Shown here: positions 2,920 through 33,307 of the stretch, piece after piece
Numbering within the stretch: the stretch's first letter is position 1
How the letters are laid out: every line of letters starts with the position of its first letter
Source: Anaerolineae bacterium
GTDB taxonomy: Bacteria > Chloroflexota > Anaerolineae > Aggregatilineales > UBA2796
Assembly (NCBI GenBank): GCA_020851855.1
Contig: JADZBY010000435.1
Location: 1,095 to 65,094, forward strand
DNA length: 64,000 bases
Reading direction: 5' to 3'
Notes under the pieces: generated by a model
Told to the model about the DNA's origin: nothing
What the model saw: the letters and a program-made list of their open reading frames with translations, nothing else
Database searches by the model: none
Made by a program: the position numbers and the translations under genes

Positions 2920-3561
2920 TTACCCCCGCCACTCCTCATCCACCATTGTCGGATCGTACTTCAGCGCCAGCTTATGTCGAGCCAGCGCCTTGATGCGCTC
3001 CCGAGTCGCCTGTGGCAGGTCACCCCAGCGATACAACCCCAGACGGATGTTCTTCTGGACGCTCTCCAGCTGGACTGGTTTCGTGATCTGAAGCTGTGCA
3101 ATGAGCTCGTTGGCCATTTCTCGTAGCGCCTCTGGAAATGCCAGATCAAGCCCCGCCAACGGATTTCCCGGTGCTTCCCGCATTCCATGGATAGATACTT
3201 TACGAAGAATTCCCTCACTCAGGGCCTCAAGGACGCCCATCACTGCATCCTGCTTTTCTGGCGACAGCTCATCAAAGGCATCGGCAAGGAATTCGGCACG
3301 CGCGGAGTTCACGTTGGCTTTCGGGGGAATGTAGCCCGCCAGCCGGAACAGGTAGAGGGCATTGACCTCGAGGGCGTCGGCCACACGGCGTAGTGTGCTG
3401 GGATCAGGGTCCCTGGCTCGCTTGTCTATTCCGTGCTTGAGTAGATTGCGAATCACGGACTCCGACGTACTTGCCGCAGTAGCAAGGGTGCTGTTGTTGT
3501 ACCCACGTACTTCCATCAGGTCGGCAATGAAGCGACCAAGAGTGTCTGCTGAAGAAGCCAT
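2920..3561 (-). CDS. XRE-family helix-turn-helix transcriptional regulator (repressor-like)
   Basis: 213-aa ORF with an N-terminal HTH (GYNNSTLATAASTSESVIRNLLKHG). It is transcribed divergently from the plasmid-like genes across a promoter/operator region. Confidence 0.8.
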   Translation of the reverse strand: MASSADTLGRFIADLMEVRGYNNSTLATAASTSESVIRNLLKHGIDKRARDPDPSTLRRVADALEVNALYLFRLAGYIPPKANVNSARAEFLADAFDELSPEKQDAVMGVLEALSEGILRKVSIHGMREAPGNPLAGLDLAFPEALREMANELIAQLQITKPVQLESVQKNIRLGLYRWGDLPQATRERIKALARHKLALKYDPTMVDEEWRG

Positions 3562-3608
3562 GATCTGCGTATCTCTCGGATAACATGCCCGCCCAGAAAC
3601 CCACTCTG

Positions 3609-3689
3609 ATTATACAGCGCGAGCACGATCCGCTTGACCCCGAACCCGATCTTCCTGTATAATATCTCAGTGCGCGCAACTCGCGCACT
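3609..3689. promoter_or_regulatory. back-to-back divergent promoters with operator-like palindrome
   Basis: Plus strand: -35 TTGACC at 3634-3639, an 18-nt spacer, then extended -10 TGTATAAT at 3656-3663. Minus strand: extended -10 TGTATAAT, the reverse complement of 3609-3616. The palindrome AGTGCGCG-caact-CGCGCACT at 3669-3689 sits at the predicted plus-strand transcription start. Confidence 0.55.
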
Positions 3690-3782
3690 TGCGCGAATGA
3701 CATCGAGATGCTCCACGGCGTCTCATTTCTTGGTCCCTCAGTCGCGCAGAAAAGCGTAATCCGAGCAAACGAGCGAGCGGCT

Positions 3783-3995
3783 ATGCCTAAACCCGAATCA
3801 CCTCCCAAACGCGCGATTCTCCTTCAAACCGGCAGCGATCCCGAGCTGTGGGAGTACGACAGCCTGCAGGACGCAATTGCGGCGAACGTAGGCCTCCTGG
3901 GCCAACTGATGCTCCCACCTGAAAAGCGCCGTCAGCTGCACAAGCCGCAACTCGAAGACAAACCCGACTCGCCGCCCGGAGAAGTTGCCGCGTGA
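3783..3995 (+). CDS. hypothetical small protein
   Basis: This is the ATG-initiated part of ORF 3708..3995, downstream of the plus-strand promoter. No recognisable domain. Confidence 0.35.
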   Translation: MPKPESPPKRAILLQTGSDPELWEYDSLQDAIAANVGLLGQLMLPPEKRRQLHKPQLEDKPDSPPGEVAA

Positions 3996-4052
3996 GCTTC
4001 TCTCTTTTTTTCGCCCGCTTGCCCGTAGCCAGCCCGTATCGCGGGAGGTCTC

Positions 4053-4253
4053 ATGATTAAGCGTATTGAGTTCACCCTGAACCTGGCCGACCCACGCGAC
4101 GAGGCTATTTACCGCGCCCTCGTGCCGTCGCTGCGTTACCGTCGCGCCGGGGCGCTCATCCGGCAGGCGCTGGGCGTATTCCTCAGCAGCAACGCGCGGC
4201 CACCGGTCCAGCCGCATAGCCCGCAGGAGCGCAAGCTTCATGAGCAGTCCTAA
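4053..4253 (+). CDS. small ribbon-helix-helix-like DNA-binding protein
   Basis: 66 aa, with GGGAGG 5-6 nt before the ATG. It shows a beta-strand/helix pattern (IEFTLNL...DEAIYRAL...AGALIRQALGVFL) resembling the protein encoded after parM. It overlaps the parM start. Confidence 0.55.
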   Translation: MIKRIEFTLNLADPRDEAIYRALVPSLRYRRAGALIRQALGVFLSSNARPPVQPHSPQERKLHEQS

Positions 4254-5271
4254 GCGTAACGGCGCGCTGACCATCGGCCTGGACATCGGCTACGGCGTGG
4301 TCAAGGCCGTGACCTCGGACCAGGTCGTGATGTTCCCGTCTGTCATGGGCCACGCCCGCGAGGTGAAGTTCCAGCAAGAGGACATGTCACGGCGCTACCC
4401 CGGCGACCAGATCCGCGACGACGAGGGCGACTGGTTCGTGGGCGATCTGGCGCTGGCGCAACTGCCCACCGGCGAGCTGCTACGGCTGCGCGGACGCACC
4501 GCAAACGAGTCGACGATGGGCAATGCCTTCCGGCTGCGGTTGGCCAAAGTGGCTATCGGCAAGCTTCTGCAGGATGCGCACAACCGCGATCTAGCCCACA
4601 TCCGCATCGCCACCGGCTTGCCCGTCGATCATATGCGCGACGCCGATGAGCTGAAAGAGACCTTGTGCGGCCAGCACCTCATCCAGACCGACACTGCCGA
4701 GGTGGTCGCCAACGTGACGGACGTGATGGTCATGCCGCAGCCCTACGGCACCATCTTTTCCGCCACGCTGACCGAGTCGGGCGAGATCAACCGCAGGCAC
4801 AACTTCCGGCTCACCGGCGTGTGCGACGTCGGCACGTACACGGTTGATCTGGCGCTCGACGACGAGGGGCAGTTCCTGGACTCGGAGAGTGGCAGCGTCG
4901 AGAGTGGCGTGTACACGGCCCAGGAGCGCATCGCGTCGGCTCTGGAGCGCGATTACCGCGAGAAGATGCCTTTCCGCATCGTGGAAGAAGTACTACGTAC
5001 CGGGCTATTCCACGCCAACGGTCAGGCAGTAGATTACCGCGCCATCGTCGAGCAGGCCCTCGCGCCGCTGCGCAGCGCGACGCTCAACCTCATGTCTGAG
5101 AAGTGGCAGCGCGGCACGATCATCGAAGTGATCTACCTGTCCGGTGGCGGCGCTGACCTCGTGGCAGATGTGGTGTGTGAAGCGTATCCGCAGGCGCAGA
5201 TCATCCCCGAGGCGCAACTTGCCAATGCGCGCGGCTACCTGAACTATGCATACTTCATGGCGCGTCCGTGA
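4240..5271 (+). CDS. parM: ParM/StbA-type actin-like plasmid segregation ATPase
   Basis: Carries actin-fold signatures: LTIGLDIGYGVVKAV (phosphate 1), VCDVGTYTVDLA (phosphate 2) and IYLSGGGADL (adenosine). Confidence 0.85.
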   Translation: MSSPKRNGALTIGLDIGYGVVKAVTSDQVVMFPSVMGHAREVKFQQEDMSRRYPGDQIRDDEGDWFVGDLALAQLPTGELLRLRGRTANESTMGNAFRLRLAKVAIGKLLQDAHNRDLAHIRIATGLPVDHMRDADELKETLCGQHLIQTDTAEVVANVTDVMVMPQPYGTIFSATLTESGEINRRHNFRLTGVCDVGTYTVDLALDDEGQFLDSESGSVESGVYTAQERIASALERDYREKMPFRIVEEVLRTGLFHANGQAVDYRAIVEQALAPLRSATLNLMSEKWQRGTIIEVIYLSGGGADLVADVVCEAYPQAQIIPEAQLANARGYLNYAYFMARP

Positions 5272-5345
5272 ACGCGGCGCGGCGGTTTGACAAGTTTGAC
5301 ACGCCGGTTTTATCGGTCAAACCAGGGTGGCGACGCGAGGCGGCG

Positions 5346-5702
5346 ATGAAGCAGCGGAAACACCGGATGATCGCCTTCAAGGCCTATACCGACACCGACG
5401 CCGACTTGCTGGCGTGGTGGCAAAGCATCCCGGTTGGGGCGCGCAGCGGCGCGATACGCGAGTTGCTGCGCCTGGCGCTTGGCTACCAGCTGGAAACGAC
5501 TGTTTCCGACGCGGATATGGCCGCACTGCGGGCCGATGTCGCCTGGATTCGCGGAGTACTGGTCGAATTGCCCCGCCAGGTGAGCGCGATGGCACAGCCC
5601 GCGCCTGCACCACAGGTGAATGGGAATGAAACCGCCGTACAGGAGATGGACGACCGCAGCGCTAAGCTACGTGAGCAGCGTCTGCGAAAGCCCAAATGGT
5701 GA
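5346..5702 (+). CDS. ParR-like / RHH-like small DNA-binding protein
   Basis: From ORF 5268..5702. ATG 5346 is preceded by GAGG; an alternative GTG 5268 overlaps the parM stop. MIAFKAYTDTDADLLAWWQSIPVGARSGAIRELLRLAL aligns with the 4053 protein. Confidence 0.5.
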   Translation: MKQRKHRMIAFKAYTDTDADLLAWWQSIPVGARSGAIRELLRLALGYQLETTVSDADMAALRADVAWIRGVLVELPRQVSAMAQPAPAPQVNGNETAVQEMDDRSAKLREQRLRKPKW

Positions 5703-5744: not shown

Positions 5745-5970
5745 GGCAAAGCGCCAAGCACTTTGCCGGACGATGCGTCGAGGCGCATCGTCCCTCTCTG
5801 ACCCCCTGCCAGTGTCGTGGTGGCACAAGCTGGTCGCAGGGGGTCAGAAGCCAGCTAAATCTTAGCTGGTTCCTCAAACGCCGGAAGGGCTGGTGCAGCA
5901 CGCACGGCGTGCCGCACCTGTGCGACGGTGTAACCACCTGTCGCACGTGTGGGCAGGACCGGTCCCGCCC
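5745..5970. promoter_or_regulatory. inverted-repeat-dense non-coding region (candidate oriT or centromere)
   Basis: Seven inverted repeats lie within 226 bp: GGCAAAG/CTTTGCC (5745-5767), GGACGATGCG/CGCATCGTCC (5768-5793), TCTGACCCCCTGC/GCAGGGGGTCAGA (5797-5848), CCAGCTAA/TTAGCTGG (5851-5869), GCACG-G-CGTGC (5902-5912), GTGCGAC/GTCGCAC (5920-5946) and GGGCAGGACCGGTCCCGCCC (5951-5970). Confidence 0.45.
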
Positions 5971-6036
5971 ACGCAACACACTAACGGCGATTCTGCTCCG
6001 CAAGTCGCACCAGTCGGACGCAAGAGGATTCCACCC

Positions 6037-6360
6037 ATGAATCACCGGCAAAGTGTGCAGGCCATTGCCCGGCGGTTGCCCCACCTTGAGCGTTACGACG
6101 TGGCCGAAGTTCTGGAAGTCGCCGCCGAAGTCTGGGCAAAGGAACTGGCCCGACCCGGCGGCGTGGTGAAGATCGGCAACCTGGGCAAGCTGCATGTGGA
6201 AGTGCAGCACATGCGCGCCGGGGGCGCGATCCGTCAGCGACTCGACGATAAGTGTGGGACGACTGCTCCGCCCACGCTGCGCCGCCTGTACTTCCGTTTT
6301 CGTCCGGCCCTCTGGCTGAGGGCGAGTGTGGAACATGCCCTTGAAGCGCAAGAAGAGTGA
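6037..6360 (+). CDS. HU/IHF-family DNA-binding protein
   Basis: This is the ATG 6037 part of ORF 5893..6360. It has an HU-like arm region: VVKIGNLGKLHVEVQHMRAGG...LRRLYFRFRPALWLRASV. Confidence 0.65.
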   Translation: MNHRQSVQAIARRLPHLERYDVAEVLEVAAEVWAKELARPGGVVKIGNLGKLHVEVQHMRAGGAIRQRLDDKCGTTAPPTLRRLYFRFRPALWLRASVEHALEAQEE

Positions 6361-6649
6361 GCTGTACACGGAGCGCCAGACCGTCAGCCTGACCCCGGAG
6401 CAGATGCGCCGCTTAAGAGAGCTGCGCTCCGTGCGGGCGCGCAAGGATGGCAGCCTGGTACACACCACCGACCTGATCCGCGACGCGGTCAACTACTACC
6501 TGGCTGCCCAGGAAGACCTGCCCGGCTCGCGGCGCGCCATCGCCAAGGGCATCGAGGCGAAGGTTGACGCGCTCGACGGCAAAGTGGATGCCGTCGCGCA
6601 GATGCTGGCAGTCTTCATCGAGCGTGTCACACGGCGGCGGGAGCAGTAA
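6335..6649 (+). CDS. ribbon-helix-helix (CopG/MetJ-like) protein, possible relaxosome accessory factor
   Basis: Contains RQTVSLTPEQMRRLRELR...TTDLIRDAVNYYL. It lies immediately upstream of the HUH-nuclease-like gene, 3 nt from it. Confidence 0.6.
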   Translation: MPLKRKKSELYTERQTVSLTPEQMRRLRELRSVRARKDGSLVHTTDLIRDAVNYYLAAQEDLPGSRRAIAKGIEAKVDALDGKVDAVAQMLAVFIERVTRRREQ

Positions 6650-6652: not shown

Positions 6653-7687
6653 ATGGATCGTAAACAGATGTGCGTGGCCAACGTGCGCTACAAACGCCCA
6701 ACCGCCGACGAAGCGAAGCGCATGAAGAACCTGCTCGGCTACCTGACCTACCGCGACAGCCGCGACCAGGGCGCAAAGATGGTGGTCGGGCAGGATCGCT
6801 GGGTCGATCGCGGCCTGGGCAAGTCCGTCGCGGACATCGCGCACCGCTGTGACGATCTGCGAAGCAAGCATGTGCTGGCTTTTTCGCTGGTCATCAATCC
6901 CAACCCGCAGCTCACGGCCATGATCGCGGCCCACCGGCGCGAGCAGTTCGTGCGCGAATTGACCGAGAAGACGGTCGCCGATTTCTTCGAGGCGCGCGGG
7001 CTGGATACCGGCTGCGAGATGAGCTACGTGCTGCACCACCGCCTCAGCGACGACCCGCAAGCCCCCGGCCTGACCGACCCGCACACGCATGTCGTACTGC
7101 CCGGCACCGTCTTCAGCGAAGAGCACGGCGAGCGCGTGCCGCTCTACTTCTCGCAGAATAAGAAGGTCGACCACATCGCCATGCTGCACGCCGCCACGGA
7201 AAAGAACATGGCGCACCTGCTGGAGCGCTACATCGGGCCGGACTGGGAGCAGCGTTTCGACCACCTGGAAGCCGTGCGCGAGCAGCAGCGCCGGATTGTC
7301 GAGCAACCGCCACACGGAAAGATGCCCCACGAGAAAGATGCAGAGACCGAATGGAACGTGTGGTGCGGCGTGCGTCGGACCGACGAGCGCCACACGGCCC
7401 TCGGCTACTACCGCGGCTACTCCGTCCCGACCGAAGACGACCCGGACGCGGTACGCCTCGAATTCCGCCCGCTGGTCTCCGGTCTGCGCCATGACGAGGC
7501 GGATGTGCTGGCGCGTTACTTTGCGCGCACGATGAACGGGGACGCAAGGATGCTCCATGCACTGGCGGAGCAACTGAAGGCATTGCGCGCAGGCGAACGC
7601 GCGGGGCTGGTAGCCGAGTTGCGTGAGCACGGCTGGGATAGGCCGACAACCCGGTCGCCGGAAATCTCGTTCGATATCGACTTCTGA
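6653..7687 (+). CDS. HUH-endonuclease superfamily protein (relaxase/mobilization or Rep-like)
   Basis: 344 aa. It has a His-rich metal motif HHRLSDDPQAPGLTDPHTHVVLPG and N-terminal Tyr candidates (LGYLTYRDSR). Its context is an RHH gene upstream and a primase-helicase downstream. Confidence 0.65.
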   Translation: MDRKQMCVANVRYKRPTADEAKRMKNLLGYLTYRDSRDQGAKMVVGQDRWVDRGLGKSVADIAHRCDDLRSKHVLAFSLVINPNPQLTAMIAAHRREQFVRELTEKTVADFFEARGLDTGCEMSYVLHHRLSDDPQAPGLTDPHTHVVLPGTVFSEEHGERVPLYFSQNKKVDHIAMLHAATEKNMAHLLERYIGPDWEQRFDHLEAVREQQRRIVEQPPHGKMPHEKDAETEWNVWCGVRRTDERHTALGYYRGYSVPTEDDPDAVRLEFRPLVSGLRHDEADVLARYFARTMNGDARMLHALAEQLKALRAGERAGLVAELREHGWDRPTTRSPEISFDIDF

Positions 7688-7704: not shown

Positions 7705-10620
7705 ATGACGGAAAGCCAGACCATCTCCGCAGTGAACAACCCCCAGCCGGATCGCAGCGCCGAGCGGCGCGCATTCTTGCGTGCGCTCTACGGGACCAGC
7801 CCGGACGACCTGTACCTTGAGCTGCGCTGCATCCACCCTGAAACCGGCGAGGTCCAGCGGCTGTGGGGGCGACTCGGCGACAAGCGCGGTCTGGCCTCGG
7901 CGCTGCGTCAGGCGGATCGCCTCAATCGGGAGGGCTTCGGTGTCTATTTCGCCCCGTGCCTGCGCCGATCAAAACAGGGCACCGCTGACTCTGCGGCGCT
8001 GGCAACGGCCCTGTGGATCGATATGGACAGCGACTCGGTCCAGCGCCCGCGTGACCTGGAACGGCTGCGCAGCTTCAATCCGCCGCCCTCGTTCATCGTC
8101 GACAGCGGCGGCGGATTGCACGGCTACTGGCTTCTGGACGCGCCGATACCGCTTGATGAGGACAAAAAGCGTGAGCACTTTGCCAGTTTGCTCAATGGCC
8201 TGTTCGCCGCACTCGGCGGAGATGCCCGGTATGTGAAATCCGCCGCTTCCGTGATGCGTCTGCCGGGCAGCGTGAACACCAAGCCCGGACGCGATCAAGC
8301 GCGCGTGCGCATCGTGGAGAGCCACCCCGACCGCCGTCACGCCGTCAGTGCCTTCGCGTGGCTGGAAAGTCCGCCGAGCGAACCCAGCAAAGGCCCAACT
8401 CGCACAAAATCCAGCGACTCGGAAGAACATCCCCTTCCGGCCCGCACCGAGCATTATCTCGAATCGGGCGCGCCCAACGGCAGCCGCAACGCGGAGTTGT
8501 TCGCCGCCGCATGCCAGCTTCGCGACGCCGGACTCAGCCTGACTCACGCCGAGCAGGAGTTGGTCGCGCGCTATCTGGCCGATGGAACCGGTCGCGAGAG
8601 TGCGACAGCCCGTGAGCGTGAAGCGCGGGCGACCATCGCCAGTGCTTTTCGTCAGCCGCCTCGTGCGCCTATCCCACATAGCGCGACCGCGCAGGAGCAG
8701 GTGGCGGCGCTCGTGGAGCACGCCCATGCGCGTCCCAACTCGGCACAAATCGTCGAGGCGGTGAAGGCCTGCGCGGCACTGAATCCGGTCGAGTGGGCCG
8801 AGGAGCGCCAGCGGCTGAAGGCGCTGTGCGGCGACGGACTGAAGGTCGGCGACCTGGACCGGCTGTACCGCGACGAGCGAAAGCGTCTGGCGCGGTCCGA
8901 GGCGCAGGCCTTCCGCGAGAAGGAGCACTATGTCGAGGTGGATGGCAAGCTCGTCTACCAGCGGCAGACGGCGCGCGGCGTGATGGAGAAGGTGGTGACC
9001 GACTGGACCGCGAAGGTGGTGGAGCGCGTCACTCGCATGGATGACGATGGGCAAGTCGAGCATGTGGCTGTCGTCGAGCTTCGCCGCGACCAAGTCCAGG
9101 CACACATTGACGTGCCGAGTGAGCTTTTCGGTGACGATGCGGCCCTACGCCGCTTCATCGCCGGGCGCGCCGGCGAAGCGTTCACCGTGCGGGCGGGCAT
9201 GGCGAAGCACCTGACGCCCGCGATACTCAGCCTGTCGGGCACGTATGCCTCCCGGGCCAGTTACCGCTTCATGGGCTGGACACAGATCGACGGTCACTGG
9301 GCCTATATCACGCCGAAGCTGTGCGTCACTGCCAAGAGCATCCTCAAGGAGGCGCACGAGGTCGAGCTGGAGTCGCGCCTGCGTGATTATCACCTCGCCG
9401 AGTCCGACTGGGAAGCCAGTCTGAAGGCGTTCGCGGCGATGGCAGCCGTTTTTCCGCCAGAGCTTGCCCCTACGCTCATCGCTTTTGCCTGTCTGCCGCT
9501 CTTCCAACGCTTCTTTCCCAGTGCCGCGCCCAAGCCCGCCCTGCATCTCGTCGGCACCACTGGCAGTGGCAAGAGCGAGATCGCCTCCCTGATGACCAGC
9601 CTGTACGGCGATTTCTCCCGTGACACGCCGCCCGCACAGTGGGGCGATACGGTGAACACCGTCGAGGCGCTCGGCTACGCGCTGGCCGATGCGCTCTACT
9701 GGGTGGACGACTTCAAGCACATCTATGCCGACGAACGGACGTTTACGCGCTTCCTGCAGAGCTATTCGCGTGGCATGGGGCGCGGTCGCCTCACGCGCGA
9801 GGCGAAAGTGCGGCAAGAGCGCCCGTGCCGAGGGCATCTACTGTCGACCGGCGAGACAACGCTGACCGGCGAGGCCTCGGTGCTTGCCCGCATGATTGCC
9901 CTCGAGGTGCCGCCCTGGGAACAGCGCGATCCAGTTGGCCTTGAGCTTGCCCGCGCAGTCAGACTGCGTGGTTACTTACCCGGATTCACCGCGCACCTTG
10001 CACAATGGGTAGCTGCACAGGCCGATCAGGGCATTTTGACGAAGGACATGATGCGGCGCTTCGAGGCTAGGGTGGACGACTACCGCAAGCGCCTCGCTGC
10101 CACTGGCCTGAAGGCAAACAATACGGGACGCATCGTCGGCAACTGGGCTGTGCTGGCGACCGTGTACCAGATGCTCGGCGACCTCCTGGCGTCCCGTGGA
10201 AAGGCCGATGTGCTTCCCGCCTGGTACGACCTAGCGACCGAGACTGCGCAATCGATGCAGGAAGAGCGCGCTGGCCACACCTTCCTGAACGTACTTGGCC
10301 AGCTCGTCGCCTCAGGCCAATGCCTCATAGAATCGTCGCTGCGCCCGCAATACGAGCCATCGCCCGGCAAGACCGTGGTTGGTTACCGTGACGACGGCTT
10401 TGTGTACCTTCTACCCGATGTTGCCCTCAAGGAAGTGAACTACATCCAGCCGCTGCGCTTTACGGGTCAGGCAGTCGGCGTGCAACTGCGCGAAGATGGG
10501 CTGCTTGTTCCAGGGACAACGAATCTAACCGTGCAACGCAGCGTGCGCGGCAGCGTGATTAGTCTCTGGCGATTGAGAGCAGAAGCACTAGTCGGTGAAG
10601 CAGAGGCATCTGAGGACTGA
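7705..10620 (+). CDS. plasmid/phage-type replicative primase-helicase (prim-pol-like N-terminus, PriCT-like segment, P-loop C-terminus)
   Basis: 971 aa. It contains GFGVYFAP...ALWIDMDSD...FIVDSGGGLHGYWLL (primase-polymerase-like), NGSRNAELFAAACQLRDAG (PriCT-like) and the Walker A motif LVGTTGSGKSEIASL. Confidence 0.8.
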   Translation: MTESQTISAVNNPQPDRSAERRAFLRALYGTSPDDLYLELRCIHPETGEVQRLWGRLGDKRGLASALRQADRLNREGFGVYFAPCLRRSKQGTADSAALATALWIDMDSDSVQRPRDLERLRSFNPPPSFIVDSGGGLHGYWLLDAPIPLDEDKKREHFASLLNGLFAALGGDARYVKSAASVMRLPGSVNTKPGRDQARVRIVESHPDRRHAVSAFAWLESPPSEPSKGPTRTKSSDSEEHPLPARTEHYLESGAPNGSRNAELFAAACQLRDAGLSLTHAEQELVARYLADGTGRESATAREREARATIASAFRQPPRAPIPHSATAQEQVAALVEHAHARPNSAQIVEAVKACAALNPVEWAEERQRLKALCGDGLKVGDLDRLYRDERKRLARSEAQAFREKEHYVEVDGKLVYQRQTARGVMEKVVTDWTAKVVERVTRMDDDGQVEHVAVVELRRDQVQAHIDVPSELFGDDAALRRFIAGRAGEAFTVRAGMAKHLTPAILSLSGTYASRASYRFMGWTQIDGHWAYITPKLCVTAKSILKEAHEVELESRLRDYHLAESDWEASLKAFAAMAAVFPPELAPTLIAFACLPLFQRFFPSAAPKPALHLVGTTGSGKSEIASLMTSLYGDFSRDTPPAQWGDTVNTVEALGYALADALYWVDDFKHIYADERTFTRFLQSYSRGMGRGRLTREAKVRQERPCRGHLLSTGETTLTGEASVLARMIALEVPPWEQRDPVGLELARAVRLRGYLPGFTAHLAQWVAAQADQGILTKDMMRRFEARVDDYRKRLAATGLKANNTGRIVGNWAVLATVYQMLGDLLASRGKADVLPAWYDLATETAQSMQEERAGHTFLNVLGQLVASGQCLIESSLRPQYEPSPGKTVVGYRDDGFVYLLPDVALKEVNYIQPLRFTGQAVGVQLREDGLLVPGTTNLTVQRSVRGSVISLWRLRAEALVGEAEASED

Positions 10621-10677: not shown

Positions 10678-10693
10678 GCTGAAGACGACGTAT

Positions 10694-12793: not shown

Positions 12794-12830
12794 CGTTCGC
12801 AGACCTGCATAATGCAACCCTGGGTGGTTC

Positions 12831-26491: not shown

Positions 26492-27000
26492 TCCGACTTC
26501 TCCGCCACGACTGGCCGCTCCATTTCGTGTTGTTTCTTACAAACTGGCTACCTGATAACACTCTGTTCTTGCGACTAAGGGGAGCGCTCGCACGCCCCTT
26601 CTTTGGCTCCGGCGGACGAAATATAAGGCTGGGACGTAACCTGACGTTCTACAACCCCTCGCAAATTCATATAGGGTCAGATACCTACATCGCCTACGGT
26701 TGTTGGTTCATGGCTCTGGATCCCATCGTAGTTGGAGAGGAAGTCCTGTTTGGTCCCTATTGTGTTGTAGTATCTTCCAGGCATACTCGCCAGGATGGCT
26801 CATTCCGTCACGGTGCACGTGCTCCGGCACCAATTCACATCAGGGACGGAGCCTGGATTGCCAGTCATGTTACGGTAACAGCCGGGTCGCTCATTGGCTG
26901 CGGGAGCGCCATCGCTGCCAATGCAGTGGTCATCGGTGAGGTCCCAGCTAACGTGCTTGCAGGGGGGCAACCAGCTAGGGTGCTGAAAACATTTGATTGA
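26467..27000 (+). CDS. hexapeptide-repeat (LbH) O-acetyltransferase
   Basis: Left-handed beta-helix repeats: IGSDTYIAYGCWF...IRDGAWIASHVTVTAGSLIGCGSAIAANAVVIGEVPANVLAGGQPARV. Confidence 0.8.
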   Translation: MASAVSKLIRLLRHDWPLHFVLFLTNWLPDNTLFLRLRGALARPFFGSGGRNIRLGRNLTFYNPSQIHIGSDTYIAYGCWFMALDPIVVGEEVLFGPYCVVVSSRHTRQDGSFRHGARAPAPIHIRDGAWIASHVTVTAGSLIGCGSAIAANAVVIGEVPANVLAGGQPARVLKTFD

Positions 27001-28054: not shown

Positions 28055-29478
28055 TGGCTCGCCTGGCTGATCAGGTCTACCGGCGGGTGCCGGTTCCAAT
28101 CCAAACCCTCATGGTATCGGCATATGGGTTTTGGTGGAAAAGGCTTCGCTTTGGTGGTGCGTTTGCAGAAGAATGCGTTGCCTTCCGAAGCCGAGAGCGC
28201 TTCACAACAGAGCAGTGGATGACCTACCAAGATGAACACCTGCGCGCCCTTCTCATCAGTGCCTTCGATCATGTTCCTTATTACAGCGCACTTTGGACGA
28301 GATTGGGTGTATCCCGCGCAGACCTCGACCGGCTCAGCACTGCCGAACTGAAAGCCCTGCCCCCGCTTGAAAAGAGCATTGCCCGAGACGCTCCCGAATC
28401 ACTCCTAAATGACGGGCACGCCACACGTTCTCATCTCGTATTTCACACAAGCGGGTCCACAGGCACGCCAGTTCGCACCTTTTGGCTGCCGCATGAAATC
28501 CAGCGTTCTTTGGCCATACGTGAGTCGCGCTCATGTGGCTTCGCAGGGGTGAGCTTCTCGATGCCCAGGGCCACCTTTAGTGGGCGAATTGTCGAACCAG
28601 ATCCAGAGAGCCACGGACCTTACTATCGCTTCAATCTCGCTGAACGACAAGTCTACTTCTCTGCATTCCATCTTCGTCCCGCAACAGCAGCAGCATACCT
28701 TCACGCGCTTAGGCGGCACCACGTGGAGTGGATCACGGGATATAGCAACTCAATTTTCCAGCTTGCATTGATGGTGCTGGACCAGAACTTGAAGGCTCCG
28801 TCGCTGAAAGCGGTAATCACGACGAGCGAGAAAGTCATACCCGAAATGCGAGAGGTGATTGAGAAAGCCTTCTCGACCCGGGTCTTCGAAGAATACGCCA
28901 CCGTTGAAGATCTGTTCTACGTGTGCGAATGCGAAGCCGGGCGCAAGCATGTCAATCCTGACGCTGGAATTCTCGAAGTCGTAGACGCCGACTTCCGTCC
29001 CGTACCACCTGGTACGCTGGGGGAAGTGCTCGCTACAGGATTCATTCGACCCGGTCAACCCATGATTCGTTATCGTGTGGGCGATCTCGCTGTACTGGAT
29101 GATCAGCCCTGTCCATGCGGTCGGGCGATGCCAGTGCTGAAGGAGGTTCTTGGGCGCGTCGAGGATACTGTTTATGGGCCTGACGGGAGGCGAATGCTTC
29201 GCTTCCACGGAATATTCGTGGGCCAGGCTCATGTGCAGGAAGGGCAGATCGTCCAGAAACGGCTCGATCATCTCGTGGTGCGGGTTGTTCCGAAGGTGGG
29301 TTTTGGTCCGGCGGACAAGGCGGATATCATTCAGCGTGTCCAGCAACGGTTGACGCAGAAGGTTAACGTCACGGTAGAGGCAGTCGAGCAGATCTCTCGT
29401 ACGAAGGCCGGGAAATTCCCGGCCGTGATTTGCGATTTGCCTCACGATGTACTGGAACGCGTGCGTGGAGTCCACTGA
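28054..29478 (+). CDS. CapK-like adenylate-forming enzyme (phenylacetate-CoA ligase / F390 synthetase-related family)
   Basis: From ORF 28009..29478, with ATG 28054 overlapping the upstream TGA. It has the AMP-binding motif FHTSGSTGTPVR and its length and order are typical of capsule CapK proteins. Confidence 0.7.
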   Translation: MARLADQVYRRVPVPIQTLMVSAYGFWWKRLRFGGAFAEECVAFRSRERFTTEQWMTYQDEHLRALLISAFDHVPYYSALWTRLGVSRADLDRLSTAELKALPPLEKSIARDAPESLLNDGHATRSHLVFHTSGSTGTPVRTFWLPHEIQRSLAIRESRSCGFAGVSFSMPRATFSGRIVEPDPESHGPYYRFNLAERQVYFSAFHLRPATAAAYLHALRRHHVEWITGYSNSIFQLALMVLDQNLKAPSLKAVITTSEKVIPEMREVIEKAFSTRVFEEYATVEDLFYVCECEAGRKHVNPDAGILEVVDADFRPVPPGTLGEVLATGFIRPGQPMIRYRVGDLAVLDDQPCPCGRAMPVLKEVLGRVEDTVYGPDGRRMLRFHGIFVGQAHVQEGQIVQKRLDHLVVRVVPKVGFGPADKADIIQRVQQRLTQKVNVTVEAVEQISRTKAGKFPAVICDLPHDVLERVRGVH

Positions 29479-30490
29479 TCTGCCTTTCGTTTCCGTCATC
29501 ATGCCTGTTCGTAACGAGGCGGCTTTCATCGCGCAGAGTCTCGGCGCGGTTCTTGCTCAAGACTATCCACACGACCAGTTAGAAGTCTTCATCGCGGATG
29601 GTATGTCCACAGACGCGACGCGAGTCGTTATTGCCGAGACGGCTGCACGGCACGAGACGATATCTGTGAAGGTCATTGACAACCCGCAACAAATAGTACC
29701 CACAGGGATGAATCTTGCCCTTGCCGAAGCACATGGTGAGGTGATTATTCGGGTCGATGGGCACACCATCATCGCTCCAGATTACGTGCAGCAGTGTGTT
29801 ATGGCGCTGCATCGGACGGGTGCCGACAACGTAGGCGGTCGAATGGATGCGAGAAGCACAACACCATTGGGGGAGGCTGCCGCTCTGGCGACTGGTTCTC
29901 CTTTTGGCGTTGGCGGCGCACGTTTTCACTACTCTCACCGGGAAGAATACGTCGATACCGTCTATATGGGGGCGTGGCGCAGGAGTATCTTTGCCAATGT
30001 TGGTCTATTTGATGAAGAACTAGTACGGAACCAGGATGACGAGTTCAACTATCGATTACGAGGTGCAGGCGGGAAGATTCTCTTGTTGCCTAATATCCGA
30101 TCCGAGTATTTTCCCCGCACGACTTGGAAAGGACTTTGGCGTCAGTACTTCCAGTACGGCTTCTACAAGGTGCGCGTGCTGCAGAAGCATCCGGCACAAA
30201 TGCAATTGCGCCAATTCGTGCCACCCGTATTCGTCTCTTTCTTGGTGGGCGGGGCCATACTCGGCCTAGGATCGCGATTGGTACGCAGACTGTGGGCGTT
30301 CATGGTACTCAGCTACGCGCTCGTCAATTTCATCGTATCCTGGCGTCTTGCTGCACAGCATGGCCTTCGTCACCTGAGGTTGCTACCCACCGTCTTCGCA
30401 TCTCTGCATCTCAGCTACGGTCTAGGCTTTCTTGCCGGACTGGTGAGATTCGCCAATCGCTGGCGCGACTCGGGAAACAATGCACACTGA
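29447..30490 (+). CDS. family 2 glycosyltransferase with C-terminal membrane segments
   Basis: Contains VSVIMPVRNEAAFIAQSLGAVLAQDYPHDQLEVFIADGMSTD and QDDEFNYR, with a hydrophobic C-terminus. Confidence 0.8.
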   Translation: MYWNACVESTDLPFVSVIMPVRNEAAFIAQSLGAVLAQDYPHDQLEVFIADGMSTDATRVVIAETAARHETISVKVIDNPQQIVPTGMNLALAEAHGEVIIRVDGHTIIAPDYVQQCVMALHRTGADNVGGRMDARSTTPLGEAAALATGSPFGVGGARFHYSHREEYVDTVYMGAWRRSIFANVGLFDEELVRNQDDEFNYRLRGAGGKILLLPNIRSEYFPRTTWKGLWRQYFQYGFYKVRVLQKHPAQMQLRQFVPPVFVSFLVGGAILGLGSRLVRRLWAFMVLSYALVNFIVSWRLAAQHGLRHLRLLPTVFASLHLSYGLGFLAGLVRFANRWRDSGNNAH

Positions 30491-31175
30491 TCTCGACCGT
30501 CTCCGCACCGAGTACGCCCGAAGACGCCAGAGCGAGAGCGACAAGGCGCTCTACTCCACCTTCAATCCCGCGTACCTGTTTGCTCTCCAGCAACGTCAGC
30601 GGGCGACTATACAGATGTTGCGCCGACGAGGGCTGGGCTCCCTCGCAGGCAAGCATATCTTGGAGATTGGTTGCGGCAGTGGCGGCGTGTTGTTGGAATA
30701 TCTGGGTTATGGGACGACTGCCGCGTCCCTTGCTGGAATTGACCTGTTACCCGCTCGGCTGATCGATGGCCACCACCGTCTGCCCGGTCTTGCTCTGGCA
30801 TGTGCTGATGGACAGAAGCTCCCGTTTCCATCGGGGCATTTCGACCTCGTGCTTCAGTACACGGCGTTTTCCTCAGTGCTCGACCTGCAGATCAAGGCAA
30901 ATATGGCTGCGGAGATGGTGCGTGTCGTGCGCAAGCCTGACGGCCTCATCCTATGGTATGACTTCTGGCTCAACCCCAACAATCCTCACACGAAGGGTAT
31001 CTGTCCCGAAGAAATAAAGCAGCTATTCTCGAGCTGCAACATCCACCTACGGCGAACGACACTAGCACCGCCAATCACCCGACGGCTGGTGCGAGTATCC
31101 TGGATTCTCTGTGAACTACTCGAGAATCTCCGTCTTCTAAACTCCCATTACCTCGCCATCATCCGTCCAAACTGA
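30480..31175 (+). CDS. class I SAM-dependent methyltransferase
   Basis: Contains ILEIGCGSGGVLLEYL...DGQKLPFPSGHFDLVLQYTAF. It is the last gene of the cluster. Confidence 0.8.
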   Translation: MHTDLDRLRTEYARRRQSESDKALYSTFNPAYLFALQQRQRATIQMLRRRGLGSLAGKHILEIGCGSGGVLLEYLGYGTTAASLAGIDLLPARLIDGHHRLPGLALACADGQKLPFPSGHFDLVLQYTAFSSVLDLQIKANMAAEMVRVVRKPDGLILWYDFWLNPNNPHTKGICPEEIKQLFSSCNIHLRRTTLAPPITRRLVRVSWILCELLENLRLLNSHYLAIIRPN

Positions 31176-31227
31176 CCTCGCACCGTCCTACCTGCCTCTC
31201 ATCACCCCCCTCTCCCCGCCCCTCCCT

Positions 31228-31262
31228 CCTCATGCTACAATCTCCCTGACCACTACATGAGG
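31228..31262 (+). promoter_or_regulatory. candidate recombinase promoter flanked by a 7-bp inverted repeat
   Basis: An extended -10-like TGCTACAAT lies at 31233-31241. CCTCATG (31228-31234) pairs with CATGAGG (31256-31262). GAGGA at 31259-31263 lies 7 nt before ATG 31271. Confidence 0.4.
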
Positions 31263-31270
31263 ACTCCCCC

Positions 31271-33226
31271 ATGTCTGACTCCCGCTACCTCCACCTGATC
31301 CGGCAGGATTGTCAGCTCCCGCCTGGAACGCACGTCGTGGCGTACTGCCGGGACAGCGGCGGAGAGGAGCAGGAACGCTCCACCCTGCAGCAGGTCGACG
31401 TCATCCGCGAGTACTGCGCCCACCACAACCTCATCCTCGACCAGTTCTACGTCGACGACGCGAAAGAGGCGGGCAGTACCGAGCACCGCACCCAGCTCCA
31501 GCAGATGCTCACCACCCTGCGCACCCAGTTCCGCCAGATCAACGACCGCACCAAACGCCGCAAACACAGCCAGAACGCGCCCTTCGGCGTCATCTTCTGG
31601 AAATCGAACCGCCTGGGTCGCGACAGCATCGAAACGCGCTTCATCAAGGCCGACCTTCGCCTGCGCACCATCACGATCATCGATCTGAACCGGACCAGCA
31701 CCGGCGACACCGGGGCGGATGCGGTGCTGGAGGCTTTCCACGAGTGGCAGGACGAGACGTTCCTCGACGACGCCGGCGAGAATGCCAGTCGCGGCCTGGC
31801 ATCCATCGTCGGTATGCGCGATAACGATGCCGAGTTTCGCCGCCACAACCCGGAGTGGCCGACCAACGACGGGCGCTACCTGGGCATCCGGCCCGGAATA
31901 CCGCCAAAGGGCTTTCACGGCGAGAGCATCAAGATCGGGATACGCGAGCGCAAGCGGCGGCGCGGCGTCGAATCCGAGGCGCACATTGTCCAGCGCATCG
32001 TGCCGGACAAAGAGAGCGGCCTGTGGGCGCGCTGCCGGCTGGCCTGGGAAATGCGTCGCGAGGGCAAAGGCATCGCCGAAATCATGAAGGTGACCCGCCT
32101 CTACGGCACGGCAACCGCGTTCACGGCGTTCTTCGGCAACCGCATCTACACCGGCGATTTCGCCTATGGCGGCAAGGTGTACGAGAACTTCGTCGAGCCG
32201 CTCATCCCGCGCGAGTGGTGGGAAGACGAGCAGAAGAAGATGACCGCGCGCAGCGAAAAACAGAGGCAGCAGAGGTTAAACCCCAAGCTTGAGCCGCGCC
32301 GTATTGCCAGCCGCCATCTGCTGACCGGTCTCGTGTTCTGCAACCATGTCGATGGCGAAGAGCACCCAATGCTGGGCGACACCATCACTGAGAACGACGT
32401 GCGCAAGCGCTGGGACTTCTACATCTGCTCGGTCAAGAAGAACTCGCGCGGCAAAAAATGCGACTCCAAGCGCATCAGTACCCAGGCGCTCAACAAGGCG
32501 GTCGTGGACAAGCTGATGAGCGAGGTCCTGACCCACGCTAATCTGCGCCCGCTGGCGGATAATCTGGCGCAGGCGATGGTCGAGCGCAATCTGGATGCCG
32601 AGGCGCGCATCACCGCGGCCCGGAGTCGTCTGGACGAGGTGCGCGCGTCCATTGCCCGCCTGATGGACGCCATTGAGAAGTCGGGCCATTCATTCAGCAT
32701 CCAGCAGCGCCTGGAAACACGCGAAGCCGAGCAACGCGAACTTCTGGCAGAAATCACGCGCATGAACAAGCTCATCGTCAAGCCGAGCGACATCCCGAAG
32801 ATCAGCGACGAGCAGCTCACAGCCTTTATCGACAACATGCGGGAGACGCTGATGAGTGATGACGTGATGCTCGCGCGGGCAGCGATTGCCCGATTCGTGG
32901 CCAAAGTCGTGGTAAACGGCAAAACGGGAACGTTGTATTATACGTTCCCGTTTCATGATATTACTAGGAATGAGACTTTGCCCCTATGGGGCTTACGCCG
33001 TCACCGAGTATACAGCCTTGAAAAGTGCGCGAAGAAGGTCATTCGTTGGCTCAGTGACACGCTTCCTGCGGCAACAGCTGACTATTACGGGCCTCATCCG
33101 AAAGCGCAACGCAACGAGCTGATCCGCCAACGTTACGCAAACGGCGAGAATATCCCCAAGCTGGCAATTGCCTTTGACCTCTCGCGTGCGCGCATCCACC
33201 AGATTTTACACGGGCAACGAAAATGA
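31271..33226 (+). CDS. large serine recombinase (resolvase catalytic domain, recombinase domain, Zn-ribbon, coiled coil) with extra C-terminal sigma-70-region-4-like HTH
   Basis: Catalytic region VVAYCRDSGGEEQERSTLQQQ... and SNRLGRD. Zn-ribbon-like segment FCNHVDGEEHP...FYICSVKKNSRGKKC. Coiled coil ...RSRLDEVRASIARLMDAIEK.... The canonical end is ...VVVNGKTGTLYYTFPF, which is followed by about 91 further residues ending in NIPKLAIAFDLSRARIHQILHGQRK. Confidence 0.85.
   Translation: MSDSRYLHLIRQDCQLPPGTHVVAYCRDSGGEEQERSTLQQVDVIREYCAHHNLILDQFYVDDAKEAGSTEHRTQLQQMLTTLRTQFRQINDRTKRRKHSQNAPFGVIFWKSNRLGRDSIETRFIKADLRLRTITIIDLNRTSTGDTGADAVLEAFHEWQDETFLDDAGENASRGLASIVGMRDNDAEFRRHNPEWPTNDGRYLGIRPGIPPKGFHGESIKIGIRERKRRRGVESEAHIVQRIVPDKESGLWARCRLAWEMRREGKGIAEIMKVTRLYGTATAFTAFFGNRIYTGDFAYGGKVYENFVEPLIPREWWEDEQKKMTARSEKQRQQRLNPKLEPRRIASRHLLTGLVFCNHVDGEEHPMLGDTITENDVRKRWDFYICSVKKNSRGKKCDSKRISTQALNKAVVDKLMSEVLTHANLRPLADNLAQAMVERNLDAEARITAARSRLDEVRASIARLMDAIEKSGHSFSIQQRLETREAEQRELLAEITRMNKLIVKPSDIPKISDEQLTAFIDNMRETLMSDDVMLARAAIARFVAKVVVNGKTGTLYYTFPFHDITRNETLPLWGLRRHRVYSLEKCAKKVIRWLSDTLPAATADYYGPHPKAQRNELIRQRYANGENIPKLAIAFDLSRARIHQILHGQRK
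32922..32953. repeat. perfect 12-bp inverted repeat with 8-bp spacer inside the recombinase ORF
   Basis: AAACGGGAACGT (32922-32933), spacer tgtattat, ACGTTCCCGTTT (32942-32953). It lies exactly where canonical large serine recombinases end. Confidence 0.8.
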
Positions 33227-33265
33227 GCCAATAGCCGTCCGCTCGAACCCCACAGCATCGAGTAC

Positions 33266-33307
33266 ACGCGCCGCGCCACCGTTATGGTGACGTGGCGCGT
33301 TCGTTTT
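33266..33307 (+). terminator. rho-independent terminator after the recombinase gene
   Basis: An imperfect GC-rich stem, ACGCGCCGCGCCAC (33266-33279) pairing with GTGACGTGGCGCGT (33287-33300), is followed by TCGTTTT. Confidence 0.55.

Follow-up and report, generated by a model that had tools for sequence, protein, structure and literature searches.

A family of replicative integrative elements in Anaerolineae and an apparently rearranged copy next to a surface-glycan cluster

Introduction

The described elements closest in concept to the one reported here are the staphylococcal cassette chromosome (SCC) and the replicons of the Staphylococcus aureus pathogenicity islands (SaPIs) and other phage-inducible chromosomal islands (PICIs). 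A primase/helicase initiator followed by iterons is the arrangement known for SaPI Rep and for SCC Cch2, and replication after excision has been proposed for SCC (PMC7581432). In the account of Ubeda 2007 given in PMC7581432, the SaPI origin has two repeat sets around an AT-rich spacer, with a lineage-specific sequence. In the present study, we analyzed a 64-kb stretch of DNA (64,000 nucleotides of contig JADZBY010000435.1, hereafter the window) from an Anaerolineae bacterium, in which a GC-rich block of plasmid-like genes, including a ParM partition ATPase, a primase-helicase and an iteron-type origin, and a large serine recombinase stand on either side of a 20-gene glycan cluster. These GC-rich genes represent a widespread, undescribed family of self-replicating integrative plasmid-like elements in Anaerolineae/Aggregatilineales. 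We put at roughly 0.55 the probability that the window is a rearranged copy of this family with the glycan cluster in its cargo slot, which is the overall best explanation that we can offer.

The family is a replicative integrative island, and its hallmarks are a tRNA-aimed serine integrase, a ParM partition system and a GC-rich backbone. With SCC and SCCmec it shares the plan of a serine-recombinase island that has a helicase of the DUF927 type (Cch) or a primase-helicase pair, with iterons immediately after the helicase gene, and variable cargo. Conversely, the recombinases of SCC are CcrAB or CcrC and its target is the 3' end of rlmH (orfX), whereas the family is found at tRNA-Ala and tRNA-Glu genes; SCC also has no ParM system, no HU-like protein, no cassette in which a repressor-like gene (rep) precedes the recombinase gene and no counterpart of a 344-aa protein conserved in the family. 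The family primase is a domain resembling the archaeo-eukaryotic primases (AEP) fused to the helicase, its similarity to SCC is detected at the Pfam domain level alone, and the host phylum differs; no rlmH is present, and the resemblance to SCC is architectural only. With SaPIs and other PICIs the family has in common a conserved chromosomal site, a divergent regulator switch and a primase-helicase initiator followed by an iteron origin, whereas PICIs are distinguished by tyrosine integrases, capsid-remodelling or terS packaging genes and helper-phage derepression, and the ParM and HU-like genes are features of the family and not of PICIs.

Two further kinds of mobile DNA bear comparison. Tycheposons reportedly integrate at tRNA 3' ends and carry a primase/helicase module and variable island cargo, with several per genome. 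They use tyrosine recombinases, whereas the family described here has a large serine recombinase whose final codons are taken from the antisense strand of the tRNA, and the two also differ in partition system and host phylum. As targets of serine integrases, tRNA genes are unusual. Mobile polysaccharide loci include the form I O-antigen of Shigella sonnei pINV, the exopolysaccharide (EPS) plasmids of Lactococcus and the group 2 capsule islands at tRNA genes of E. coli. Like the window, these O-antigen, capsule and EPS loci combine a multi-gene surface-polysaccharide locus with a mobile replicon on which, or beside which, it lies, so that one event could transfer a glycan type. They are, however, free plasmids or tyrosine-integrase islands of Proteobacteria and Firmicutes, whereas the window would hold a putative serine-recombinase integrative replicon in a phylum without lipopolysaccharide (LPS). 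The Anaerolineae, which are filamentous and abound in wastewater, activated sludge, anaerobic digesters and sediments, are almost uncultured, and to our knowledge they have essentially no described mobile elements.

Results and discussion

The plasmid-like genes belong to a family of integrated elements

Homologs of the primase-helicase numbered 353 (E ≤ 0.001; the best 120 at 54-63% identity), nearly all in Chloroflexota metagenome bins. A scan of one genome per species gave 192 loci, almost all in Anaerolineae/Aggregatilineales, and several genomes held at least three copies. The core (ParM through primase-helicase) has the gene order of the window in L001, L003 and L004 (loci are numbered with the prefix L) and in 60-80 further fetched loci. 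Because many loci lie on contigs of 0.15-6.2 Mb and relatives stand beside tRNA genes, members of the family are integrated. The family was not found in PLSDB, GenBank phages or IMG/VR, the sole similarity being 25-33% identity over the primase domain (26-33% to phage and P4-family primases), and a literature search returned no description of it.

In relatives, the canonical order begins with the 3' end of a tRNA gene and attL, followed by the recombinase and rep on the minus strand and by a divergent switch region; it continues on the plus strand with ParM, small proteins, the HU-like protein, the 344-aa protein and the primase-helicase, and then come the iteron origin (ori), variable cargo and attR. 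In canonical relatives the recombinase stop adjoins or runs into the 3' end of tRNA-Ala(CGC) or tRNA-Glu(TTC). Recombinase genes that overlap the tRNA were found in L003 (tRNA at 3324-3397, recombinase at 3359-5107), L006, L011, L016, L023, L038, L040, L049, L050, L055, L074 and L084. The last ~12 recombinase codons (e.g., ...GFEPLTSTVRL) are thereby read from the tRNA antisense strand, and from this overlap one would expect them to change on excision. Iteron-like repeats occupy the equivalent place after the primase-helicase gene but are built from different words, i.e., TGTGAA, TGTGAC, TGAGAC, TGAAAC, GGTGAC and others; such lineage-specific words fit the divergence of initiator-iteron pairs.

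The recombinase and the core are linked through rep. Homologs of rep (43-64% identity) occur in 16 of 84 loci, and also in L085 and L086. A recombinase homolog (48-55% identity, a divergence equal to that of the core genes; a remnant in L001) lies directly downstream of rep on the same strand in 15 of the 16, across a gap of 65-200 bp or an insert of 0.6-2.4 kb such as a VapBC pair; in the sixteenth, L012, there is no recombinase within its 3.7-kb left flank. Long-form recombinases with a C-terminal helix-turn-helix (HTH) like that of the window (P0122, P0132) follow the rep homolog in L085 and L086. The recombinase of the window is 48-58% identical to the family recombinases, and across relatives the G+C content at third codon positions (GC3) of the recombinase tracks that of the core (r = 0.90). 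These results agree with the original prediction, made from the letters of the window alone, in assigning the plasmid-like module and the serine recombinase to one kind of element.

The rep-recombinase cassette is broken in the window

The window is the sole locus with rep and the recombinase 27.7 kb apart and on opposite strands, the recombinase being parallel to the core and lying beyond the post-ori region. The two GC-rich parts had been read as the two ends of one element. In the 15 canonical relatives and in L085/L086, however, the recombinase adjoins rep, on the opposite side of the core from the cargo, and that reading does not hold.

Inverting the segment at 2.9-31.2 kb restores the rep-recombinase cassette. 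The same operation sets the end of the glycan cluster beside the PqqD and radical-SAM genes of the left flank, on the same strand and with the same GC3, and it turns the recombinase, together with a rhodanese module on the right side, antiparallel to the core, the orientation seen in every other locus. Going by gene order, one inversion of this 28-kb segment (rep, core, ori and glycan cluster) would be the simplest history of the window, and we give it even odds. Such an event would have broken the cassette, carried the recombinase to the far side of the glycan cluster and reversed its orientation with respect to the core. Before it, the left flank would have adjoined the end of the glycan cluster and pointed in the same direction. 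Circular permutation of a canonical element was considered as another route to this gene order and was ruled out, since any single cut keeps the recombinase antiparallel to the core, unlike in the window.

The region after the origin is a cargo slot in relatives

The extent of the element is best defined in L011. The last 15 nt of its tRNA (TCCCCTCGGGTCCAA; 3360-3374) have a single further copy on that strand, 7.8 kb past the primase-helicase (20698-20712). The attP reconstructed from this attL/attR pair has near-perfect inverted arms, TAGTTAAGGAAAC / GTTTCCATAACTA, around the 15-nt core TCCCCTCGGGTCCAA, and the element so delimited measures 17.3 kb. Its 7.8 kb of post-ori cargo comprises a 1821-aa RT-TIR protein and an insertion sequence (IS) transposase, and the gene beyond attR codes for an unrelated von Willebrand factor A (VWA) protein. 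Among 13 tRNA-adjacent relatives analyzed for a partial-tRNA repeat or inverted att arms, only L011 gave a pair, and the other 12 gave none within the 10 kb fetched. L084 (JAFLCG010000004.1) carries the att arm of L011 and L055 a related arm, neither with a partner within 10 kb.

In L055 (JAUQWZ010000046.1), a member in another genome that is integrated at tRNA-Ala, a different and non-homologous glycan cluster lies directly after the ori (13273-22814) and extends past the fetched DNA. It encodes a NusG paralog, a Wzm/Wzt ABC exporter, a fusion of CMP-sugar synthetase and HAD phosphatase, NeuB, a family 2 glycosyltransferase (GT2), a methyl/pyruvyl transferase, an acetyltransferase and a TagF-like protein. 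The att-enclosed 7.8 kb of L011 makes the post-ori position a real cargo slot, and the glycan cluster of L055 occupies the same slot. Post-ori proteins across the family are diverse (200 Pfam families in 132 proteins) and include AbiEii-like ATPases, UvrD helicases, N6-methylases, ABC transporters and two-component systems.

The compositional outlier is the backbone and not the glycan cluster

The original prediction started from GC counts in six 60-nt lines. Our recount reproduced them without error (41, 38, 28, 26, 22 and 34 of 60), and a compositional mosaic with steps near 10.9 and 31.2 kb was recovered by a sliding profile and by segmentation, with computed change points at ~10.4 and ~30.2 kb. 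Binomial change-point segmentation divided the window into 1-3830 (54.3% GC), 3831-10400 (64.7%), 10401-30240 (54.1%) and 30241-64000 (58.9%), and the left step at ~3.8 kb (change point ~3830) falls inside the divergent regulatory region. The mosaic is thus real, whereas its amplitude had been overstated: the glycan lines quoted at 37-47% are the low tail of a cluster with a mean of 54.2% (60-nt lines have a standard deviation of 5.6 points and a range of 38-75%), and the true drop is ~10.6 points, not 20-30.

Gene by gene, GC3 in the window is 0.83 for ParM, 0.83 for the 344-aa protein, 0.76 for the primase-helicase and 0.80 for the recombinase, against 0.50-0.65 across all glycan genes; rep has 57% GC and a GC3 of 0.63. 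The left flank (1-2.9 kb; GC 53.4%, GC3 0.56-0.57 in the radical-SAM and PqqD genes) is indistinguishable from the glycan cluster, and the composition of the cluster also resembles that at 47-57 kb of the window. On the right, the recombinase (60.9% GC) meets no step at its right end, the 14 kb after it having 60.2%, and the GC3 of right-side genes is 0.71-0.74 at 36-47 kb and 0.59-0.63 at 47-54 kb. Tetranucleotide usage correlates between the two halves of the glycan cluster (r = 0.84); for the 2.8-kb left flank and the 2-kb recombinase it gave no confident partner segment (r 0.55-0.75).

This contrast is a rule of the family. Core GC (ParM to primase-helicase) exceeds that of post-ori DNA in 43 of 45 loci (58.1% vs 50.8%; mean difference +7.3 points, maximum 14.9), and core GC3 exceeds the GC3 of post-ori open reading frames (ORFs) in 41 of 42 (0.67 vs 0.525). 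In L011 the att-enclosed post-ori DNA has 43% GC and the core 56%. In relatives and window alike, rep stands ~0.2 below the core in GC3, and the values of the window (recombinase 0.80, core 0.76-0.83, rep 0.63) match the family pattern. The compositional outlier is the mobile backbone, not the glycan genes. Because of this family-wide rule, the GC step at ~10.4-10.9 kb is neither an element end nor a sign of foreign glycan genes, and the "clearly different origin" claimed for the cluster lacks support, given that its composition equals that of the left flank and resembles that at 47-57 kb and that the backbone GC excess is seen in 43/45 loci. A GC drop after the ori as a general mark of the element end was also ruled out, as the att-enclosed cargo of L011 drops likewise. 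The backbone keeps its GC3-rich signature across hosts while the content of the post-ori slot has a lower, host-like GC, and the mosaic of the window comes from this contrast of backbone and slot, not from glycan genes of foreign origin.

Weighing the cargo reading against its alternatives

From homology to serine integrases, the recombinase is predicted to integrate and excise the element. The primase-helicase would fire the adjacent iterons so that the circle replicates once excised, in the manner of SaPI Rep and SCC Cch, ParM would segregate this circle, and, by conjecture, the 344-aa protein may nick DNA for transfer. Within this scheme we lean somewhat towards the glycan cluster being cargo, either now or when the element was last mobile. 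The cargo reading is favoured because of the slot position of the cluster, its co-orientation with the core, the precedents of L011 and L055 and the lack of housekeeping genes; a host origin is favoured because of the host-like composition and the context of L172, where a KdsA relative at 72% identity is part of a large cluster of the Wzy type that has no family gene nearer than 10 kb.

Several results weigh against the best explanation as a whole, this context of L172 and the host-like composition, which would also fit host DNA, among them. An att-defined cargo is found in one relative only, and it spans 7.8 kb rather than 20 kb. Copies at different sites usually lose their DNA homology 200-300 bp after the primase-helicase, and in most copy pairs this loss behind the ori might as well mark where the element ends. 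In the window, comparison of the post-recombinase DNA with four junction zones for att-like direct or inverted repeats gave one chance-level 12-mer inside the radical-SAM gene, and tRNA and Rfam scans of the 64 kb found no match and hence no tRNA gene. Exact-sequence look-ups of the recombinase and primase-helicase proteins gave no record, and a protein-cluster look-up gave no relatives at or above 90% identity on useful contigs, hence no genome close enough to show an empty site. The recombinase of the window falls in the long-form subfamily, to which no target site is assigned. No repeat of at least 9 nt is common to 2835-2919 and 31090-31330, and 8-mers shared by them are at chance level. 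Finally, excision, replication and partition are read from homology, and the source is a single 66,124-bp contig of a metagenome-assembled genome (MAG). The element in the window, having no recognisable att pair, is probably not mobile as a 2.9-33.3 kb block; the block proposed earlier finds no backing in att sites, tRNA or empty site. Genes at 42.7-56.2 kb turn up next to the family core in other loci, so that a right boundary at 33.3 kb is not established either.

The strongest competitor, which we regard as unlikely and yet as the one to be reckoned with, takes the glycan cluster as ordinary host DNA. The element would then be ~8-10 kb long and have ended after the iterons, and an inversion in the chromosome, running from the rep-recombinase spacer to host DNA past the glycan cluster, would have trapped the host glycan locus between backbone and recombinase. 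The usual end of homology 200-300 bp after the primase fits such a short element, as do the missing attR and the agreement of the glycan genes with the left flank in GC and GC3 and their resemblance to 47-57 kb. Kds-type genes, moreover, occur away from the family, in the L172 cluster and, for a KdsD-KdsA relative, among housekeeping genes in L171, and the nearest named relatives of KdsA include Anaerolineae. Against a short element, L011 extends 7.8 kb past the ori within att sites and holds low-GC cargo there; the arms of L084 and L055 have no partner within 10 kb, so that long post-ori regions are likely internal. L055 has, independently, a glycan cluster right after the ori, and in the 64 kb of the window Pfam scans found no housekeeping gene.

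Two elements lying tail to tail, the left one having lost its recombinase and the right one its core and rep through deletions, would also produce a recombinase on the far side of the glycan cluster. Multiple copies per genome, sometimes only ~10-12 kb apart (L026/L083, L033/L061), decayed copies such as L001 (a 207-aa recombinase remnant), L086 (a rep-recombinase cassette without core) and L012 (rep without recombinase), and the canonical mutual orientation of the recombinase and the right-hand rhodanese module all speak for it. It nevertheless calls for at least two deletions ending exactly in short intergenic spacers where one inversion suffices, no second core, ori or rep remnant lies beside the recombinase, and the only adjacent pair in opposite orientation, L033/L061, is head to head. 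We consider this history improbable.

More improbable still is that the whole contig is an extrachromosomal plasmid or a large composite island, maintained by ParM, the primase-helicase and the iterons, in which the recombinase acts as a multimer resolvase or invertase and does not define the ends. The 64 kb do combine a complete replication and partition set with abundant accessory genes (RiPP maturases, i.e., of ribosomally synthesised and post-translationally modified peptides, STAND NTPases, IS fragments and the glycan cluster) and no housekeeping gene, the recombinase has a C-terminal HTH_7-like domain like those of small resolvases and invertases, and other loci, too, link the genes at 42.7-56.2 kb to the family core. 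The relatives, on the other hand, are integrated on 0.15-6.2 Mb contigs beside tRNA genes, PLSDB has no member of the family, and GC varies blockwise across the window. An assembly chimera joined at repeated element sequences can almost be dismissed: the family is multi-copy in genomes and common to co-occurring Anaerolineae, a classic setting for misjoins, and the source is a MAG, but the junctions at 2835-2919 and 31176-31270 share no repeats and lie in unique intergenic DNA and not within repeated core or recombinase sequence, and neither the core genes nor the recombinase gene are truncated or frameshifted.

If the glycan cluster is cargo, the window and L055 hold two unrelated glycan clusters in the post-ori slot, and a glycan type could be gained by one integration at a tRNA gene; polysaccharide types would be swappable by site-specific integration, which bears on phage susceptibility, floc formation and bulking. 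That the family is a main vehicle for swapping whole surface-glycan loci and defence systems among Anaerolineae is a bolder proposal, and one that we hold to be doubtful. As read from sequence, the layout of the backbone, the tRNA-Ala and tRNA-Glu targets, one attL/attR/attP set with its attP/attB pair, the iteron origin and its position, the GC rule and the cargo slot make the family definable and searchable, with the window as a uniquely rearranged copy. Serine integrases with natural tRNA targets could serve as tools. For genome scanning, a GC step that adjoins a mobile backbone is not necessarily the edge of an element, nor is the side with lower GC necessarily foreign, and family cargo within att sites has a host-like or lower GC.

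Backbone genes and origin of the window

The coordinates of the features are collected in Table 1. The ParM call, now backed by Pfam, has both domains above cutoff and further agrees with PHROG_691 partition protein (2.6e-46), and relatives are 69-82% identical. The 144-aa protein that follows occupies the position of a possible ParR-like adaptor. For the HU-like protein, the homolog in L003 has precomputed HU matches. Upstream, ORFs of 66-69 aa are called at the equivalent place of the regulatory region in L001 and L003 (tblastn to L001, 46%). What had been called an XRE repressor keeps the repressor part of its name through PHROG transcriptional-repressor matches that are weak (E 4e-4 to 2e-3), and rep has no Pfam match.

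For the predicted replication initiator, the helicase half of the name primase-helicase is backed by Pfam DUF927 (4.3e-5; 23.8 bits against a cutoff of 22.6), and the primase half is suggested by RepB_primase (1.4e-4; 22.2 bits, below the cutoff of 24.3) and by PHROG DNA primases, which match at 9e-10 to 5e-12. Its invariant motifs are D106-x-D108, S134-G-G-G-x-H139 and a GTxGxGKS Walker A at 617-624. The iterons, also named in the original prediction, withstood a statistical check, with six TGTGAA-N3-TGTGAA matches in the window, all in 10694-10884, where 0.23 are expected and none of 100 shuffles reaches six. The TGTGAA clusters lie at 10693-10720 on the minus strand and at 10795-10823 and 10857-10885 on the plus strand, and a hairpin (10650-10675) stands between the primase-helicase stop and the iterons. 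A 157-aa ORF (10757-11230) over the iterons is probably spurious.

In the 344-aa protein, Y13, Y30, H128, H129, H144, H146 and an LPGT motif are invariant and Y33 nearly so (35-73 homologs). It has no match in Pfam, PHROGs or PDB, by sequence or profile, and against relaxase/HUH profiles the best hit was TrwC (E 0.098 in one of 35 members, not significant). Single-sequence AlphaFold2 (AF2) models of this protein and of the 213-aa rep had a pLDDT of 40-41, and Pfam, PHROGs and PDB gave neither an identity. The conserved motifs behind the name "HUH nuclease" stand, whereas profiles and structure lend it no support; the invariant tyrosines and the HxH motif suggest, by conjecture, that the protein is possibly an HUH-type nuclease or relaxase. 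Packaging and morphogenesis genes (terS, cpm, ppi and similar) had no Pfam or PHROG match among the core proteins.

The large serine recombinase was well named, with Resolvase (2e-9, residues 22-177), HTH_7 (3e-4) at its C-terminus and Zn_ribbon_recom (5.9e-5; 23.8 bits, slightly under the cutoff of 25.3). PHROG_95 integrase matches residues 290-564 (5.9e-34), with C357, C386 and C397 conserved, and R27-D28-S29 and W110-K-S-N-R-L-G-R-D118 are invariant in 8 family members. From these motifs, the recombinase of the window is apparently catalytically intact.

Table 1. Features of the window (positions of the 64-kb stretch; strand; basis or remark)
Feature	Position	Strand	Basis or remark
Left flank: radical-SAM/SPASM maturase (1091-2263) and PqqD-domain protein (2220-2834)	1091..2834	-	Radical_SAM 3e-25, SPASM 4e-7, PqqD 7e-19
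Putative left breakpoint, 85 bp between rep stop and PqqD	2835..2919	.	Relatives have the recombinase, or a short insert then the recombinase
rep, 213-aa repressor-like protein	2920..3561	-	Opens the rep-recombinase cassette; points away from the core operon
Divergent regulatory region with small conserved ORF(s), e.g., 3708-3995	3562..4239	+	ORFs of relatives, tblastn
ParM/Alp actin-like partition ATPase	4240..5271	+	Pfam ALP_N 1.7e-21, MreB-like_C 6.4e-12
144-aa conserved core protein	5268..5702	+	Homologs in 63 loci; no Pfam or PHROG match
HU/IHF-like DNA-binding protein	5893..6360	+	Pfam Bac_DNA_binding 3.5e-4, just under cutoff; homologs in 70 loci
107-aa conserved core protein	6326..6649	+	Homologs in 73 loci, 38-84% identity
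344-aa conserved core protein	6653..7687	+	Conserved motifs across 35-73 homologs
971-aa primase-helicase, predicted replication initiator	7705..10620	+	N-terminal AEP-like primase, C-terminal DUF927 P-loop helicase
Iteron-type origin	10693..10885	.	Three clusters of 9-bp-periodic TGTGAA repeats, inverted around an AT-rich spacer
20-gene Wzx/Wzy-type glycan cluster in the post-ori slot	11246..31175	+	Pfam
Putative right breakpoint, 95-bp pyrimidine-rich spacer	31176..31270	.	Last glycan gene to recombinase start; relatives have rep there
651-aa large serine recombinase, long form with C-terminal HTH	31271..33226	+	Pfam, PHROG, conserved catalytic motifs
Rhodanese / B12-radical-SAM / MBL-fold (metallo-beta-lactamase) / STAND-TPR-LuxR / double-rhodanese module	42762..56167	+	Homologs beside the core elsewhere, Pfam

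The glycan cluster

Pfam confirmed the 20 co-directional genes of the cluster, described earlier as a unidirectional Kdo-glycan cluster (Kdo, 3-deoxy-D-manno-octulosonic acid). They encode Wzx (11246-12793; Polysacc_synt 2.6e-14), Wzy (24034-25356; Wzy_C 4.8e-14), KdsB/D/A/C, three GT2 and four GT4 glycosyltransferases, three methyltransferases, an epimerase, a hexapeptide acetyltransferase, an AMP-binding-like protein and a 406-aa protein without assignment. KdsB-KdsD-KdsA-KdsC (13837-16910) form a full set for the CMP-Kdo pathway, with Pfam matches to SIS + CBS (9e-22, 2e-23), DAHP_synth_1 (1.4e-71), Hydrolase_3 (1.4e-11) and CTP_transf_3 (2.3e-52); homologs of KdsA carry the name 3-deoxy-8-phosphooctulonate synthase. 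The product of this set is predicted to be Kdo or a related ulosonic acid. Chloroflexi have been reported to lack LPS (PMC8871954), and in such a phylum the Kdo-type sugar would presumably be used in a non-LPS polymer, i.e., a capsule, EPS or wall polymer.

The cluster had been taken for a complete glycan serotype. Among the window ORFs scanned, however, no match to Bac_transf, Glycos_transf_4, Wzz or Poly_export was found, i.e., the cluster has no initiating phosphoglycosyl transferase, chain-length or export genes, and so it is not self-sufficient. By analogy with many O-antigen loci, the missing functions may sit elsewhere in the genome.

The closest KdsA (80% identity) belongs to a syntenic methyltransferase (MT)-KdsB-KdsD-KdsA-KdsC block in L087 (KdsB 85%, KdsD 76%, KdsA 78%, KdsC 56%, MT 52%), where the block is followed by different glycosyltransferases and a different Wzy; the contig ends before the upstream neighbour of the block. 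By analogy, a shared Kds block with differing glycosyltransferases and Wzy would be the usual pattern of a serotype locus. Anaerolineae and Bacteroidota are among the named KdsA relatives at 64-71%. With the 406-aa protein as query, a metagenome scan gave no relatives, and a scan with a KdsA alignment gave, among the matches listed, only distant LPS-type loci at up to 66% identity, none with family genes. As a separate observation, KdsA homologs at 70-80% are common in metagenomes and are present in other Anaerolineae bins, with a constant gene order in L087 and L172.

Other loci of the family

Some members of the family lie close together. L026 and L083 (JACKCH010000011.1) are ~11.6 kb apart on one contig, and L033 and L061 (CAKQCB010000003.1) are ~10.7 kb apart in opposite orientation, with a third primase-like fragment at L061:3036-3563. 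Such clustering on one contig suggests integration hot spots or accretion of elements. At L044:6452-9855 the gene of the 344-aa core protein is broken by an insertion of ~2.3 kb with a 637-aa ORF (7332-9245), and owing to this interruption we regard the copy in L044 as decayed.

A distant cousin was found at L085:1944-9475, with rep (43%), the 344-aa protein (33%), the 107-aa protein (32%) and a ParM-like gene called by Pfam, together with a different replication protein (964 aa, AAA_25); IS3 and a DISARM-like system lie just outside. In this locus a GNAT gene stands between rep and the recombinase. The GNAT beside the recombinase of the window was considered as its counterpart and ruled out, the two not being homologous. 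At L089:9500-11938, a 645-aa recombinase of the same family (54%) lies behind a 107-aa XRE protein and not behind the 213-aa gene, in phage-like surroundings (Gp3-like, DUF5131, IstB-like, methylases, P63C). Because of this phage-like context, the recombinase lineage is common to different kinds of mobile elements.

Flanking DNA of the window

The radical-SAM and PqqD genes of the left flank have no homologs in any family locus. They form a RiPP-type maturase pair (window 1-2834), in which the PqqD-domain protein has an N-terminal extension of ~130 aa, and small ORFs upstream of the pair (407-679 and 746-1051) could be RiPP precursors.

On the right, the rhodanese module has homologs in family loci. 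The double rhodanese (55298-56167) is 84-85% identical in L036/L044, 69% in L007 and 52-72% over two segments in L042. For the other genes, the identities to family-locus homologs are 70-72% for the rhodanese at 42762-43232, 63% for the MBL-fold protein and 74% over the last 61 aa of the B12-radical-SAM protein, and STAND (60%) and LuxR-TPR (44%) both match one 844-aa gene in L036. The module lies just after the ori in L036 (5405-14887) and L044 (13407-22889) and just left of ParM in L007 (4115-5387) and L042. It is antiparallel to the core in all four loci, which represent two lineages, and parallel to it in the window. The module could be cargo that recurs or a neighbourhood that the element prefers. 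Its L036 version further encodes a UbiE-type methyltransferase, a flavin reductase, a saccharopine-dehydrogenase-like protein and a Kelch protein.

In the window, the STAND NTPase ORF (47637-48857) and the TPR-LuxR ORF (48858-50162) are in one frame and split by an in-frame stop, which may reflect a pseudogene, a read-through gene or a sequencing error. A 1573-aa protein combining Ser/Thr kinase, nSTAND1 and WD40 parts (58198-62919) has 36-40% identical homologs encoded after the ori in L033, L058, L083 and L084. The window has four further STAND/AAA_16 proteins, and the five suggest a region rich in conflict systems. Remnants of insertion sequences are present between the recombinase and the rhodanese module, i.e., a truncated DDE_5 transposase (39629-40327, 232 aa, profile positions 4-215 of 272) and a split IS630-like element on the minus strand (HTH at 41566-42168, DDE_3 at 41003-41557).

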